Shown here: piece after piece, positions 686 through 61,031 of the stretch
Layout of the letters: each line of letters begins with the position of its first letter
Numbering within the stretch: position 1 is the first letter of the stretch
Assembly (NCBI GenBank): GCA_022711715.1
Contig: JAKLEC010000001.1
Location: 112,860 to 176,859 of the forward strand
DNA length: 64,000 nt
Origin: Acidobacteriota bacterium
GTDB taxonomy: Bacteria; Acidobacteriota; Aminicenantia; UBA2199
Reading direction: 5' to 3'
Translations under genes and position numbers: made by a program
Notes under the pieces: model-generated
The model's input: the letters and a program-made list of their open reading frames with translations, nothing else
What the model was told of the DNA's origin: nothing
The model's database searches: none

Positions 686-795
686 CTTGGCGTACGGCGT
701 ACGGCAAACGGTGGACGGCAAAAGGCAATTTCAGGATCAGGTGCTGGCATGGCAGTTGCCGTATGCCCTACGCCGTATGCCGTATGCCGAGCTCA
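686..795. repeat. GCCGTAY-type hairpin element (empty form)
   Basis: Left arm ggcgtac ggcgtac ggcaaac ggtggac ggcaaaa (689-728). Right arm tgccgta tgcccta cgccgta tgccgta tgccgagc (757-792). About 25-nt loop. Confidence 0.85.
745..760 (+). promoter_or_regulatory. Sigma54-type -24/-12 element TGGCAT-N5-TTGCC
   Basis: TGGCATGGCAGTTGCC has the canonical GG-N10-GC spacing, about 60 nt upstream of ATG 820. It sits in the loop of a repeat hairpin, so it could be fortuitous. Confidence 0.4.
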
Positions 796-819
796 TCGTC
801 GAGGTCCTGAGAGGATAAG

Positions 820-1305
820 ATGAATGAACTGTACAGCGTCCACTCCCTGATCCGCGGCTTCGCCTACGAAGGAACGACGTACGAGGAGGTGAAGGTCGCC
901 TGGTTCGTCGCCGGGCGCGCCGCCCCGCTCGTCCCCTTTGAACAGGCCATCCAGGACTGCACCCGCCTCTCCGCCAGCGAGCGCGCTTTCCCCGAGGGCT
1001 ACGTCCGCGAGTTTTTCGGCCGCGAAGAGGCGCAGGCGCTGAAGGCCTACCTGGATCGCCGCCGCGAACTGACGACCTTCATCGAGCCCGTCGAGTTGCC
1101 GGTCATGGCCAACGCCAGCGGCTGCCGGAGGCTGCCGCGCGGCCACGGCGCCGACTTCCTGGCCCTGCACCGCGAGAAGGGATACTCCCTGCCGTTCAAG
1201 GTCGAGGGCTATTTCAGCGTGCGCCTGGCGGCTCCCCGCGTGCAGGGCGACGACCGCCGGACGGAAATCGCGGCAAGGGCTGCCAAAAAATCGAGTGACA
1301 AGTGA
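820..1305 (+). CDS. Hypothetical protein, 161 aa, no family recognised
   Basis: ATG preceded by GAGAGGA. GC3-rich codons. TGA stop lies inside a GAGTGAC heptamer array. Sigma54-like motif about 60 nt upstream. Confidence 0.6.
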   Translation: MNELYSVHSLIRGFAYEGTTYEEVKVAWFVAGRAAPLVPFEQAIQDCTRLSASERAFPEGYVREFFGREEAQALKAYLDRRRELTTFIEPVELPVMANASGCRRLPRGHGADFLALHREKGYSLPFKVEGYFSVRLAAPRVQGDDRRTEIAARAAKKSSDK

Positions 1306-1326
1306 CGAGTTATGAGTGACGAGGCA
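1292..1326. repeat. GAGTGAC-type heptamer array (4-5 units)
   Basis: gagtgac aagtgac gagttat gagtgac gaggcat. TGA occurs at 1296, 1303, 1313 and 1317, covering all three frames. Contains the stop codon of CDS 820-1305. Confidence 0.85.
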
Positions 1327-1337
1327 TAAAAAGACTA

Positions 1338-1427
1338 ATCGATCGTAATTCGTGATTCGGTAGAAAAACAGCGACGGAGCGAACTATTGCTGTTGCGAAT
1401 TACGAATTACGCCTTACGAATTACGAT
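1338..1427. repeat. CGTRATT-armed hairpin element, copy 1
   Basis: atcgatCGTAATTCGTGATTCGg - core aaaaACAGCGAcggagcgaactatTGCTGTT - gCGAATTACGAATTACGccttACGAATTACGat. Confidence 0.9.
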
Positions 1428-1429
1428 GC

Positions 1430-58219: not shown

Positions 58220-58416
58220 CTCATCACGCGTTACACGTCACGCAGGCTCGTCATTGCAGTTCGTTTTGCGGCAGCGGTACACCGAGCCCTGCTTTTCTTA
58301 CCGTACACCGTATGCCGCGGCGGTCCCGTCAGGGCCGCCGGCCGTATGCCAAACTCAGGCAAGTTCTCTTTTCTTGCCGTACGCCGTACGCCGTATACCG
58401 TATGCCGTATGCCGAG
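58220..58416. repeat. GTCACGC-like and GCCGTAY arrays with a GC hairpin, in the prolyl oligopeptidase 3' region
   Basis: catcacgcgttacacgtcacgc; ccgtacaccgtatgccg; hairpin cggcggtcccgtcagggccgccg; gccgtacgccgtacgccgtataccgtatgccgtatgccgag. Confidence 0.8.
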
Positions 58417-58426
58417 TTCTGTCAGC

Positions 58427-60553
58427 CTACTTGCACGTCATGCCCAGGTTCTTGAACACGAACGCCCAGGTGTCGGCCGAGATCTCGATCGCCTTGCGCA
58501 GGTTGGACGAGCCGTGGCCCGAGCGCGTCTCGACGCGGATCAGCACCGGGTTGTCGCCGCGCTGCTTCTCCTGCAGGGTGGCGATGAACTTGAAGGAGTG
58601 GGCCGGGAAGACGCGGTCATCGTGGTCGGCGGTGGTCACCAGCGTGGCCGGGTAGCGGACGCCGTCGCGGAGGTTGTGCAGCGGCGAATAGGCGTGCAGG
58701 TACTTGAACTGCACCGGGTCGTCGCTGGAGCCGTACTCCACCGCCCAGCCCCAGCCGACGGTGAACTTGTGGTAGCGCAGCATGTCCATGACGCCCACCG
58801 CGGGCAGGGCCACGCGGAACAGGTCGGGGCGCTGGGTCATGACCGCGCCGACCAGCAGGCCGCCGTTGGAGGCGCCGGATACGGCGAGGCGCGCCGGCGC
58901 GGTGTACTTCTCGCGGACCAGGTACTCGGCCGCGGCGATGAAGTCGTCGAAGACGTTCTGCTTCTTCTCCAGCATGCCGGCCTTGTGCCAAGCCTCGCCG
59001 TACTCGCCGCCGCCGCGGATGTTGGCCACGGCGTAGACGCCGCCGTTCTCCAGGAACACCAGGTTGGCGGCGCTGAAGTAGGGGGACATGCTGGCGTTGA
59101 AGCCGCCGTAGGCATACAGCAGGGCGGGATTGCCGCCGTCCCGCTTCAGGCCCTTCTTGTGGACGATGAACATGGGCACCCGCGTGCCGTCCTGGCTGGA
59201 GTAGAAGACCTGCCTGACCTCGTAGTCCTCGGGGACGAACTTGGCCTCGCTTTTGCGGAACAAGGTGCTGGCACCGCTGGCGATGTCGTAGCGGAAGATC
59301 ACCGGCGGATAGTTGAAGGAGGTGAAGGTGTAGAAGAGGGTCGTGTCCTCCTTCTTGCCGCCGAAGCCACCGGCCGTGCCCAGCCCGGGCAGGGCGATCT
59401 CGCGCTCCAGCCTGCCCGCCAGGTCGTGCTGGGTGACGCGGGTGGCGACGTCCTTGAGGTAGTGGCAGAAAAGCTTGCCGCCGGCCGTGCCGGCGCCCAG
59501 CAGCACCTCGGGCCCCTCGGGGATCACCGTCTTCCAGTTTCCGCGCTCCGGGTTGGCGCCGTCGATCAGCACCACCCGGTAGTTGGGGGCGCCGTCGTTG
59601 GTGTGCACCAGGAAGGAGCCGCCGATGTTGTCGATCGGGGAATAGTCGAACTCGAAGCCGGGGCAGAGCGTGTGAAAGGCGTCATCGGCCTTGCCCAGGT
59701 CGCGGAAGCGCACCTCGGAGCCGTGCGTCCCCTCGGAGATGCCCAGGAAGAGGTAGCGGCCGTCCTCGCTGACGCCGGCGCCGTAGTAGCGCAGCGGGTG
59801 CGCCGCGTCGGCGAAGACCAGCGCGTCCTTCTCCTGCGGGTCGCCCAGCTTGTGGTAGTACACCTTCTGGTTTTCGTTCTTGGCCTTCAGCTCCTCGCCG
59901 GCCTGGGGGGCGTCGTAGCGGGAGTAGAAGAAGCCGTCGCCGCTCCAGCCGGCGCCGGAGAACTTCACCCAGCGCAGGCGGTCGGGAAGCTCTCTGGCGG
60001 AGGCGATCTCCATCACGCGGATCTCCTGCCAGTCGGAGCCGGCCTCGGAGCGGGCGATGGCCATGTAGCGGTTGTCCTGCGACTCGCCCAGCAGGCCGAT
60101 GCGCACCGTGCCGTCGGCCGACAGGGCGTTGGCGTCGACGAAGACCTGCGGTTCGCCGTCCAGCCCCTTCTGGTAGTAGATCACCGACTGGTTCTGCAGG
60201 CCGTTGTTCTTGCTGAAAAAGTAGTACTCGCCGACGCGGAAGGGGGCCGAGTAGCGAGGATAGTTGAACAGCTCCTCCAGGCGCTTCTCGATGCCGGCGC
60301 GGCAGGGAATGGCGTTGAGGTAGGCGAAGGTGAGCCGGTTCTGCTCCTCCACCCAGGCCTTGACCTCGGGGGCATTGTCGTCCTCGAGCCAGCGGTAGGG
60401 ATCGGCGACCTTGACGCCGTGGTAATCGTCCACCACGTCGACTTTCCTGGTTTGCGGATACGCGGGCCGCTTCTCCCCGCCGGCGCCGTCTGCGGACACG
60501 AAGCAGAAGAAGACGGCGACCATCACGATCGCGAACAGGGCTTTCTTCATCAT
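58427..60553 (-). CDS. Prolyl oligopeptidase (S9A family serine peptidase)
   Basis: N-terminal beta-propeller region. Nucleophile motif GASNGGLL. C-terminal HG. AGGAGG SD before ATGATG. Signal peptide. Confidence 0.92.
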   Translation of the reverse strand: MMKKALFAIVMVAVFFCFVSADGAGGEKRPAYPQTRKVDVVDDYHGVKVADPYRWLEDDNAPEVKAWVEEQNRLTFAYLNAIPCRAGIEKRLEELFNYPRYSAPFRVGEYYFFSKNNGLQNQSVIYYQKGLDGEPQVFVDANALSADGTVRIGLLGESQDNRYMAIARSEAGSDWQEIRVMEIASARELPDRLRWVKFSGAGWSGDGFFYSRYDAPQAGEELKAKNENQKVYYHKLGDPQEKDALVFADAAHPLRYYGAGVSEDGRYLFLGISEGTHGSEVRFRDLGKADDAFHTLCPGFEFDYSPIDNIGGSFLVHTNDGAPNYRVVLIDGANPERGNWKTVIPEGPEVLLGAGTAGGKLFCHYLKDVATRVTQHDLAGRLEREIALPGLGTAGGFGGKKEDTTLFYTFTSFNYPPVIFRYDIASGASTLFRKSEAKFVPEDYEVRQVFYSSQDGTRVPMFIVHKKGLKRDGGNPALLYAYGGFNASMSPYFSAANLVFLENGGVYAVANIRGGGEYGEAWHKAGMLEKKQNVFDDFIAAAEYLVREKYTAPARLAVSGASNGGLLVGAVMTQRPDLFRVALPAVGVMDMLRYHKFTVGWGWAVEYGSSDDPVQFKYLHAYSPLHNLRDGVRYPATLVTTADHDDRVFPAHSFKFIATLQEKQRGDNPVLIRVETRSGHGSSNLRKAIEISADTWAFVFKNLGMTCK

Positions 60554-60593
60554 GGGCCTCCTATGAAAATTTGGACCGGTGCGCAAGAGACAT

Positions 60594-60623
60594 ATTATAC
60601 GCCATAAGGGGGAAAATGGTTAA
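60594..60623 (-). promoter_or_regulatory. Sigma70-type promoter TTAACC-18-TATAAT for prolyl oligopeptidase
   Basis: Perfect -10 box on the minus strand, about 40 nt upstream of ATG 60553. Confidence 0.45.
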
Positions 60624-60641
60624 TTCATGACATCGGCACTC

Positions 60642-61031
60642 GGCGTAAGGCTCAAGGCGCAAGGTACAGGGCAACTGCACTGAATGGTGCAGATCGTAAA
60701 AGGGCAGTTACCCTATGCCCTGCGCCCTACGCCGTATGCCGAGCCGGGCGGCCTCGGGCCGCTATTCGCGCCCGATTGGCGCAAGGCTCAAGGCGCAAGG
60801 TGCAAGGGAACTGCGCTGAATGCTACAGTTCGTGAAAGGGCAGTAACCCTATGTCGTACGCCGTATGCCGAGCTGGGCGGCCTTCGGCCGCTATTCGCGC
60901 CCGATTGGCGCAAGGCTCAAGGCGTAAGGTATAGGGTAAAGGCACTGAATGGTTCAGATCGGGAAAGGGCCGCTACCCTACGCCCTATGCCGTACGCCTT
61001 ATGCCGAGCTGGGCGGCCTTCGGCCGCCCTA
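60642..61031. repeat. Three tandem copies of a structured unit of about 129-136 bp (AAGGCNC arm / GCCGTAY-type arm hairpin + GGCGGCC-N4-GGCCGCC hairpin), abutting the rpoC stop
   Basis: Unit starts at 60642, 60778 and 60907. Each unit ends ...gggcggcc(t)tcggccgc(t/c)attcgcgcccgatt. Confidence 0.9.

Follow-up and report, generated by a model that had tools for sequence, protein, structure and literature searches.

Tandem arrays of heptamer units have been known since about 1990 from heterocystous cyanobacteria, where the short tandemly repeated repetitive (STRR) sequences form the unit families CCCCAGT, TTGGTCA, and CAACAGT. Repetitive extragenic palindromes (REPs) are single imperfect palindromes of 20-40 nt, and REP families are tied to the RAYT transposase, which is IS200/IS605-like (Y1). 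To our knowledge, neither the origin nor the role of tandem heptamer repeats has been established. Here, we describe tandem arrays of 6- and 7-nt units that occupy the gaps between operons in a 64,000-nt stretch of an Aminicenantes genome (contig JAKLEC010000001.1, positions 112,860 to 176,859), referred to as the window. The arrays are a real and striking feature, and they are joined into larger elements that recur at unrelated loci in related genomes.

Heptanucleotide tandem repeats are the commonest class among 5-11-nt simple-sequence repeats in many prokaryotes, according to the summary of Mrazek (2007) given in PMC4679880. MacGregor (2015; PMC4679880) places TAACTGA heptamer repeats in marine Beggiatoaceae, cyanobacteria, and Bacteroidetes. 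For Geobacter metallireducens, Aklujkar et al. (2009; PMC2700814) give 24, 21, and 8 opposite-strand pairs of tandem 8-, 9-, and 7-mer arrays with variable spacing (Gmet_I classes 1-3 and Gmet_H4), which do not occur in G. sulfurreducens and for which a role with IHF or HU is proposed and is not a result.

Like the STRR sequences and the heptanucleotide long simple-sequence repeats, the arrays of the window consist of few copies of tandem 7-nt units, belong to several unit families per genome, are non-coding, and have a sporadic, lineage-specific distribution. The window holds 22 period-7 arrays, 20 of which are intergenic, against 0.1 expected in shuffled gaps. They share none of the units CCCCAGT, TTGGTCA, and CAACAGT, and represent the same kind of repeat in other families. 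Unlike in STRR, hexamers and heptamers are mixed, ends and junctions are conserved, arrays form part of larger dispersed composites, and every inter-operon gap is reached, in a host that belongs to a 67%-GC Aminicenantes clade. With the G. metallireducens arrays, those of the window have in common the 3-5 tandem units of 7-9 nt, the arrangement mostly as pairs of sites on opposite strands at variable distance, the dozens of intergenic occurrences, and the presence in one species with absence from its sister. The unit sequences differ, and neither shared junctions nor many-unit gaps are reported in the available sections of PMC2700814. The TAACTGA repeats are likewise intergenic heptamer arrays with one unit common to distant taxa, as is the case here for CGTAATT. 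As described in the portion of PMC4679880 at hand, they are of a single unit type, oriented, and located just upstream of start codons, whereas the arrays of the window avoid the region between promoter and start codon and have no fixed orientation.

The likeness to the REP/BIME sequences of enterobacteria and pseudomonads, REPINs, and the NIMEs of Neisseria lies in the mosaic order, the conserved linkers, and extragenic units that may count as palindromic. As with REP/BIME, the elements lie between the 3' end of a gene and the next promoter, are capable of forming hairpins, and imply hundreds of copies. Unlike in REPs, the arms are tandem arrays that are loosely complementary, at 75-90%, and their inverted arrangement is not above random. 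Miniature inverted-repeat transposable elements (MITEs) such as Nezha, Chunjie, and the Correia elements offer a further comparison, given that they share with the elements of the window the length of 100-400 nt, the terminal inverted repeats, the AT-rich core, the copies at unrelated loci, and the presence or absence between relatives. The element of about 340 nt at 18212-18555 has inverted termini, a short core, and copies at unrelated loci (L110, L108, and L101; L numbers denote the loci retrieved from other sequences). The differences from MITEs are that no parent insertion sequence is seen, and that the inverted termini have an internal periodicity and vary from family to family.

Arrays of this kind were also found in other genomes. 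In Desulfacinum sp. MAG-79 (a metagenome-assembled genome, MAG; L024, JACIYN010000007.1), nine heptamer arrays in 21 kb tile the gaps with many units. These arrays lie at 600-650, 2900-2990, 5640-5850, 11500-11545, 12760-12860, and 17250-17610, with the units CCCATAY, CCCCTAY, CCTTACG/ACTGACG, GGCGTWA, CGGATYA, and CACTCNT, in addition to REP-like GTAGGGGCGAA hairpins. Cross-phylum identity with the window was considered and set aside, given that shared 12-13-mers are at chance level for the amount of sequence compared. Single arrays or pairs occur in three loci of other phyla in the control set (L030, L017, and L008). Among viral contigs, (CGTRATT)3 arrays were found in 38 IMG/VR loci (L143-L180) of 30-67% GC, compared with 6 for a composition-matched control heptamer and 4 for a GCCGTAY pattern; inverted pairs occur in only 3 of the 38. 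One of these, L158, has portal, terminase, endolysin, and HNH genes, which mark it as a genuine phage, and carries ten CGTAATT arrays within 10 kb. Its arrays extend over 3650-9100, some as tight intergenic hairpins, and AACACGA or GTGTTA arrays are also seen in viral loci L169, L163, and L157. A search of viral contigs for a junction 16-mer was uninformative, the matches being low-GC contigs without arrays, in about the number expected by chance.

The occurrence of such arrays in Desulfacinum, other phyla, and phage, together with the heptanucleotide literature, means that the kind of repeat is already known and widespread. A sequence-only reading of the window had aptly named STRR and REP/BIME as comparisons; its statement that the arrays match no element family was too strong in view of the heptanucleotide class, the paired arrays of G. 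metallireducens, the tiling in Desulfacinum, and the viral CGTAATT arrays. Literature queries by topic and by literal array sequence gave no description of such repeats in Aminicenantes, and a broad STRR query returned only unrelated papers. What is particular here are the intergenic saturation, the mixture of hexamers and heptamers, and the defined ends and junctions by which arrays are linked into dispersed composites.

Census, anatomy and dispersal of the arrays

Tandem Repeats Finder detects about 60 period-6/7 arrays at the places that the sequence-only reading had given. For the counts, an array was taken to have at least 3 units with at least 80% match, and the background consisted of Markov shuffles of the same gaps. 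Intergenic DNA makes up 10.3% of the window and contains, besides the 20 period-7 arrays, 13 of the 25 period-6 arrays (0.2 expected). Arrays are present in 21 of the 23 gaps of at least 60 nt and in all 21 gaps of at least 86 nt, the two exceptions measuring 67 and 69 nt; the earlier claim that nearly every inter-operon gap is filled is therefore borne out. Arrays in the strict sense cover 1375 of the 6616 intergenic nt. The GC content is 0.50 in intergenic DNA versus 0.676 in coding DNA. The density of period-7 arrays is 3.44 per 10 kb in the window, against a mean of 0.32 per 10 kb in 80 unrelated genomes (1.25 Mb). The unit types include GTGRTA, GTGTTN, CGTRATT, GCGTRAC, GCCGTAY, and CTTTTNC, with 2.2-5.7 copies per array, so that vocabulary and array length are as first described. 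Variation between units had been attributed mostly to one purine or pyrimidine position; transitions do outnumber transversions (99 versus 71), but only 21 of the 54 variable arrays vary at a single position. In a permutation test, arrays of the same family share gaps more often than expected (13 gaps versus 5.8, P < 1e-4).

The tallies on the plus and minus strands are uneven, at 16 versus 6 for GTGNNA-type, 4 versus 0 for CTTTTAC, and 12 versus 2 for GCCGTAY-oriented arrays, these counts being inflated by tandem duplications. The bias does not follow gene direction, which reverses near 46 kb, and is only suggestive of a replication-linked process.

The arrays are embedded in elements with a common layout, which consists of a conserved outer end, a variable arm of 3-6 tandem 6- or 7-nt units, a conserved inner junction, and a core. 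Arrays of differing units run into one shared non-repetitive inner junction, AACAGCAAT; for the junction GGAACAGCAAT, 8 matches with at most one mismatch were found versus 0.6 expected, in keeping with the shared junction motifs already pointed out. The inner junction often lies opposite ATTGCTGTT, with a short loop containing ATCGATC in between. The outer end of CGTRATT and CGTGACG arrays is conserved and starts with GCTATCGT or GCGATCGT, that of GCCGTAY arrays is conserved as GCC-RAGYTC, and matching ends are also found on the elements termed P- and T-type. T-type hairpins occur at six or more loci with identical ends and inner stem. The order of modules recurs as well. The series CGTGACG, CGTRATT, junction, AACACR, CTAYCA is found at 3024-3215 and 46072-46294, and reversed at 54590-54775 and 57982-58243, while the Family-2 order, GTGATA-GTGTTA followed by the junction, 30-40 nt, and CTTTTAC, is found at 30281-30400, 51258-51371, and 54795-54887. 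Two loci (19447-19694 and 60642-61027) are higher-order tandem repeats with arrays inside every unit.

Copies of whole elements were found elsewhere. In the 340-nt composite at 18212-18555, arms made of CCAAGCA/CCAAAT and GTGATA/GTGTTA arrays surround a conserved, AT-rich core measuring about 140 nt. Copies of the composite occur in L110 (82%) and L108 (74%), with incomplete ones in L099 and L101; all of these sit among unrelated genes at non-orthologous loci of other MAGs. A 22-nt pattern of array plus junction (21 specified bases) matched 12 further loci, all on Aminicenantes-like contigs, and in these the same junction carries differing downstream modules. Relatives of the window were reached stepwise through AckA homologues; a scan of genome contigs based on Rho gave only relatives of at most 71% identity, which were used as the control set. 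Arrays are present in L094 and L096, with 91% and 89% AckA identity, and their vocabulary overlaps that of the window without being identical. L098 and L111-L113 (AckA identity of 86, 81, 78, and 74%) have short gaps and zero intergenic period-7 arrays across the syntenic 21 kb. On these comparisons, the arrays occur only in a narrow Aminicenantes clade, at about 89% AckA identity or above.

Orthologous gaps differ by the presence or absence of whole modules, as the proposed comparison with sister genomes was meant to reveal. The gap 3' of ackA is 140 nt long and array-free in L094 and L096, holds one module in L109, and in the window combines the L109 module with about 300 further nt, among them a P-type element; the promoter TTTGCC-N17-TGCTATAAT behind it is conserved in all four. 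In the rho/glycosyltransferase gap the layout is kept and the heptamer pair differs in three strains (CGTGACG, TTCGTAA, and GTTCGAC), with units other than those of the window in L082 and L083; the gene beside this gap is more diverged, at 97.1% versus 99.9%. In a gap orthologous between L094 and L096, both ends are conserved, one array has changed in concert from (GTGTTA)3 to (GTGWCA)4, and the middle modules are replaced. The arrays orthologous to the H1 pair at 28819-28961 are built from other units in L094 and L096. Between strains that are 99.9-100% identical, array lengths are identical, and the arrays lie outside -35/-10 spacers and open reading frames; this stability indicates that they are not hypermutable contingency loci.

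Two further gaps deserve description. In array-less L098, the ackA 3' gap (11213-11441) contains a different repeat, GGCGTTTGCCCCCGGCAAGCGGGGACGGCACACCGAGGAC, whose unit of about 47 nt is present three times in tandem. L106 (2000-4100) and L101 (3150-3800), from genomes 98.7% identical, differ by about 1.9 kb with two extra genes, and the differing segment has duplicated (AAAGGTA)/(CTTTTAC) hairpin modules at its borders and a P-type array at one junction; arrays may have mediated this segmental rearrangement.

The reading that we tentatively favour is that the gaps have been colonised by a few related families of non-autonomous, selfish or neutral mosaic repeats, similar to REP/BIME, NIME, and MITE elements, whose arms grow by slippage. 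The dispersal of the elements, their gain and loss at the level of modules, their restriction to one clade, and their placement are established by comparing the loci at the level of sequence. The MITE-like option, one of several raised in the sequence-only reading, gains support from the composites at non-orthologous loci and from the modules that are present in one relative and absent from another. Elements have been copied to new loci, by some activity or by recombination, and the arms would grow and become uniform in place through replication slippage and gene conversion among adjacent arrays, which would give rise to a set of units that are one or two substitutions apart. We infer the slippage and conversion steps, and likewise the absence of a primary function. 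Elements would survive only where DNA is dispensable, from a stop codon or terminator up to the next -35, and would in this way come to tile the gaps and to abut functional sites on both sides. Effects on the cell, such as the extrusion of hairpins or cruciforms, protein binding, or hairpins at 3' ends, would be secondary.

Several observations weigh against colonisation by such repeats. The many unit types would require a mobilising activity that tolerates differences in sequence, or recombination instead of transposition. No transposase, RAYT, or integrase gene is present among the proteins of the 64-kb window. No clear target-site duplication was found at the boundaries of the copies of the 340-nt element or in the alignment of the ackA gap, where the sequences compared are only 74-83% identical, and no clean pair of empty and filled sites was found, the nearest empty sites being too diverged for it. 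In the rho/glycosyltransferase gap, the more diverged neighbouring gene makes imported alleles as likely as fresh events. The phage with ten CGTAATT arrays in 10 kb hints at a function, since streamlined phage genomes rarely keep junk, and arrays that abut many promoters also fit a regulatory role.

Placement, pairing and alternative explanations

The arrays span from the stop codon to 0-50 nt short of the next -35. In three genes the array supplies the stop codon itself. AckA ends within the first GTGATA unit (30282) and falls 2 aa short of its length in array-less relatives, the TGA of the glycosyltransferase (14776-14778) sits in the last CGTCACG unit, and a gene in L110 ends in a GTGTTAG unit (L110 1288-1290). 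Canonical terminators with a GC hairpin and a T-run adjoin arrays in three gaps (51469-51492, 54920-54941, and 58174-58195, all on the minus strand), and a fourth intrinsic terminator was read directly beside arrays at about 18570-18606. Given that canonical terminators stand next to them, the arrays are not simply the terminators, and the idea that they serve as such is contradicted in at least three gaps. Modules are found in either orientation relative to transcription, without a consistent preference.

This placement is relevant to an explanation that we regard as unlikely, namely that the arrays are DNA sites for an abundant nucleoid-associated protein or global regulator, IHF/HU-like or reading the repeat, whose protomers would bind head to tail every 6-7 bp and would shape the architecture upstream of promoters or insulate transcription units. 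At about ten promoters, the distance from the end of the arrays to the -35 downstream is 0-50 nt, and their independence of orientation suits a role at the level of DNA. The similar paired arrays of G. metallireducens have been proposed as sites for IHF/HU or a global regulator (PMC2700814), and the excess of CGTAATT in viral contigs over the composition-matched control (38 versus 6), including the phage with ten arrays, points in the same direction. Nonetheless, the arrays comprise at least eight unrelated unit types, the orthologous arrays of close relatives switch unit while the promoters stay conserved, and relatives with the same conserved promoters carry zero arrays. Furthermore, a period of 6-7 bp would place successive sites on different faces of the helix, and a candidate protein was not found.

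A role in RNA is quite unlikely. The inverted arrays would then be hairpins in 3'-untranslated regions (3'-UTRs) or between cistrons that end transcription in the absence of a U-tract, hold up exonucleases in the manner of REPs, or act as entry sites for RNase III or Rho. Pairs of the T-, D-, P-, and R-types directly follow stop codons at about 14 gene ends without a canonical terminator, and in the gap at 57846-58426 the P and D arrays lie between stop codon and terminator and are therefore transcribed. When folded as single-stranded DNA, 6 of 7 tested elements are predicted to be more stable than shuffles (z from -2.2 to -4.9); the ability to form hairpins is real, although possibly a by-product. 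Many arrays have no partner or are found 3' of strong intrinsic terminators, and the orientation of modules is independent of the direction of transcription. An array was said to lie frequently near its complement, and inverted pairs of the same family do occur in 13 of 21 gaps; the 15 adjacent inverted pairs versus 11 direct ones are, however, no excess once orientation is randomised (P about 0.3). The paired arms are 75-100% complementary, and a single pair is perfect. Their mismatches comprise 14 G-T, 14 A-C, and 32 of other, transversion-type kinds, and this balance means that neither RNA strand is favoured; the proposed tolerance of G-U wobble is thus unsupported, and the mismatches gave no signal of a transcribed strand.

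The check for an already described RNA family gave zero matches to the array elements at the Rfam gathering threshold, and the E-value mode gave only sub-threshold plant miRNA hairpins at 37069-37207. This R-type hairpin, purine-rich on one arm and pyrimidine-rich on the other, matches the precursors with 27-38 bits versus gathering scores of 64-96, and the matches are a chance likeness of long hairpins.

It is more improbable again that the arrays are ordinary long simple-sequence repeats that arose by polymerase slippage in place, in AT-richer unconstrained DNA, with neither copying between loci nor function. Slippage has been proposed for heptanucleotides, the commonest 5-11-nt class in many prokaryotes (Mrazek 2007, as summarised in PMC4679880). 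The composition-matched control heptamer also forms arrays in 6 viral contigs, and one orthologous array has switched its unit in concert, both of which are compatible with local slippage. Local slippage is at odds with the conserved non-repetitive junctions and ends that flank arrays of differing units, and with the recurrence of composites of 100-340 nt, including a non-repetitive core, at unrelated loci in other genomes. It is likewise at odds with the clustering of same-family arrays in gaps far beyond chance, and with the zero arrays in close relatives that have similar gaps.

We consider very doubtful a further possibility, in which the arrays are the footprint of a trans-acting activity, putatively a single-strand HUH/Y1-type nuclease-ligase or a repeat-reading protein, that recognises a motif once per unit. 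Such an activity would expand arrays in unit steps, would move elements that end in arrays, and would be shared horizontally by scattered bacteria and phages. If true, it would explain the occurrence of CGTAATT and GTGTTA/AACAC in genomes of 30-67% GC, the retention of ten arrays by a phage, and the all-or-none difference between sister lineages.

The use of the arrays as decoys for restriction sites was also considered, given that D and P units embed ACGCGT and CGTACG. In the coding DNA of the window, ACGCGT occurs 2 times versus 9.0 expected and CGTACG once versus 15.0 expected from codon shuffling. The non-palindromic neighbours CCGTAC, GCGTAC, and TCGCGT are likewise depleted, and the counts in array-less relatives are similarly low, which means that the depletion is not specific to the arrays; it looks like a codon-context bias of the lineage, and the decoy was rejected.

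That the arrays are an artefact of assembly or a chimera has next to no probability, since the ending of short-read contigs at arrays, which might suggest it, is outweighed by identical array sequences in assemblies of separate samples and by related arrays at orthologous positions in relatives. The window is a chromosomal segment of 67% GC with housekeeping genes, and it is 100% identical across 21 kb to JGI contig Ga0116241_10000178, 99.99% identical to NCBI MAG contig JAMIJE010000102.1, and 100% identical to three aligned Logan short-read contigs, which belong to a set of nine, from separate runs, with an identical AckA protein. The sequence that spans the arrays is identical in the JGI contig, the NCBI MAG, an ENA assembly, and the three aligned Logan contigs, which come from separate samples, so that the artefact named in advance as a possible refutation does not apply. 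Short-read contigs of this organism terminate exactly at arrays. L085-L093, with ackA, measure only 1.4-1.5 kb, and the short-read MAG contig L081 stops inside the 46-nt repeat at window position 19559. This is the behaviour expected of assemblers at a genome-wide repeat and not an artefact of one assembly, and it means that MAGs of this clade will be fragmented at most operon boundaries.

By breaking short-read assemblies and adding about 5% of non-coding DNA, the arrays matter for the quality and binning of MAGs. The clade is also an unusually clean system, with saturated intergenic DNA, defined ends and junctions, array-less relatives that have the same gene order and promoters, and many independent metagenome samples. 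The presence or absence of arrays at the level of clades, together with the abundant metagenome data, makes their origin and role testable, that is, what writes the arrays and whether they do anything.

Individual elements and neighbouring genes

The P-type element at 674-795 consists of (GGCGTAC)n, a 27-48-nt loop, and (GCCGTAY)n, with the right end ...GCCGAGCTCATCG and a predicted DNA fold of -34.7 kcal/mol (z -3.96). The P-type element at 30481-30682 runs from AGCTCGGCGTACGG to CCGTATGCCAAGCT with the inner junction GGCAACAGCA; it lies within the roughly 300 nt missing from L109, and L094 and L096 are also without it. Among T-type hairpins, that at 1336-1428, between convergent genes, contains GATCGTAATTCGTGATTCG, the inner stem AACAGCGA..TTGCTGTT, and (CGAATTA)n (fold z -3.55). 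At 2020-2155, a reverse-complement T-type hairpin (2020-2118) is followed by (CGTCACG)4, which overlaps the stop codon of mazG, and the fold z is only -1.10. A further T-type hairpin lies directly 3' of a stop codon at 38160-38262 (z -2.20), and two successive ones (39246-39342 and 39372-39470) occupy 39246-39470 (z -2.31).

The D-type pair (CGTGACG)4/(CGTCACG)4 at 14600-14784 is complementary at 31 of 31 positions across a 123-nt loop and fills the rho/glycosyltransferase gap. The H1 pair at 28819-28961, (AGTGRT)4.5/(CTAYCA)4.5 with a 90-nt loop, lies upstream of the conserved ackA promoter (fold z -3.85), and a second H1 pair at 48689-48875 has a loop of 139-155 nt and a left array that starts 21 nt from a predicted -35. 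R-type pairs occur at 24980-25084, where a GGGAAG-rich array faces its CT-rich complement, at 35948-36132, where the right arm runs directly into the -35 (TTGAGA) of the first gene in a set of three paralogues, and, as a paralogous copy, at 37082-37205. The (CGTCAYG) and (CGAATCA)4.4 arrays at 26180-26250 (minus strand) are unpaired and end in ACGATAGC.

The remaining elements are assigned to the plus strand. Beside the 340-nt composite, (GTGRTA)4-5 and (GTGTTN)3 arrays at 18120-18200 end in the junction GGAACAGCAAT, and a (GTGTTN)4.5 array occupies 19311-19337. The higher-order repeat at 19447-19694 has a 46-53-nt unit repeated 4.9 times, with (CCGTAYG)3-4 per unit, and stops about 5 nt short of the -35 that serves the batA-like operon. 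The composite at 3024-3215 comprises (GTGACGC)3, (TCGTRAT)4, the junction GGAACGGCAAT, (AACACR)4, and a CT-rich R' array, and leaves 7-18 nt to the -35 of the following gene; that at 46072-46294, with (CGTGACG), (TCGTRAT)4.4, GCAACAGCAAT, (AACACR)4, and (CTAYCA)4.3, has the same module order. At 30281-30400, the Family-2 module is (GTGATA)(GTGTTA), GGAACAGCAAT, 30-40 nt, and (CTTTTNC)5, and its first unit supplies the ackA stop codon. A Family-2 module with (GTGTCA) and (CTTTTCA)4.3 at 51258-51456 lies between the terminator at 51469-51492 and a predicted promoter at 51248-51220, both on the minus strand. The largest composite (54544-54887) contains GTGTCA, GTGTTN, GTGRTA, (ATCACGA), TTGCTGTT, (CGTCACG)3, GTGATAGTGTTAGGAACAGCAAT, and (CTTTTAC)3.6, and is located wholly downstream of the minus-strand terminator at 54920-54941. 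The composite at 57982-58414 is split by the minus-strand terminator at 58174-58195, with GTGTTA and GTGRTA on one side and (CGTYACG) and two (GCCGTAY) arrays on the 3'-UTR side. Downstream of rpoC, the element at 60633-61027 is a higher-order tandem repeat (60642-61027) of a 129-136-nt unit repeated 2.9 times, each unit consisting of (AAGGCNC)3-4, a loop, (GCCYTAC/GCCGTAT), and a GC-rich hairpin.

The genes of the window include pepA, mazG, tig-clpP-clpX-lon-engB-rho, glycosyltransferases, batA-D, ackA, an NtrBC-type pair, rluA, sulfatases, TonB-type barrels, prolyl oligopeptidase, and rpoC. NCBI lists the identical Rho and ClpX proteins under Candidatus Aminicenantes bacterium. Among the unannotated proteins of the window, an NCBIfam scan yielded no relevant match and no transposase. 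A block of about 22 kb (36081-58426) separates rluA from prolyl oligopeptidase and rpoC and is the most array-rich part of the window; it contains three paralogues, GWxTD/TPR genes, three sulfatase-TPR genes, and two TonB-type barrels. In the distant relatives L111, L112, and L113, prolyl oligopeptidase and/or rpoC directly follow rluA. The three tandem paralogues of about 300 aa (36167-37093, 37263-38153, and 38326-39237) have no Pfam or NCBIfam match, and the second and third are about 80% identical in DNA. Each has its own promoter-like TTGAGA/TTGACA ... TAGAAT/TATCAT sequence, and R- or T-type elements lie between them. Among the relatives, L094 has zero copies of these paralogues, and L096 and L098 have three.

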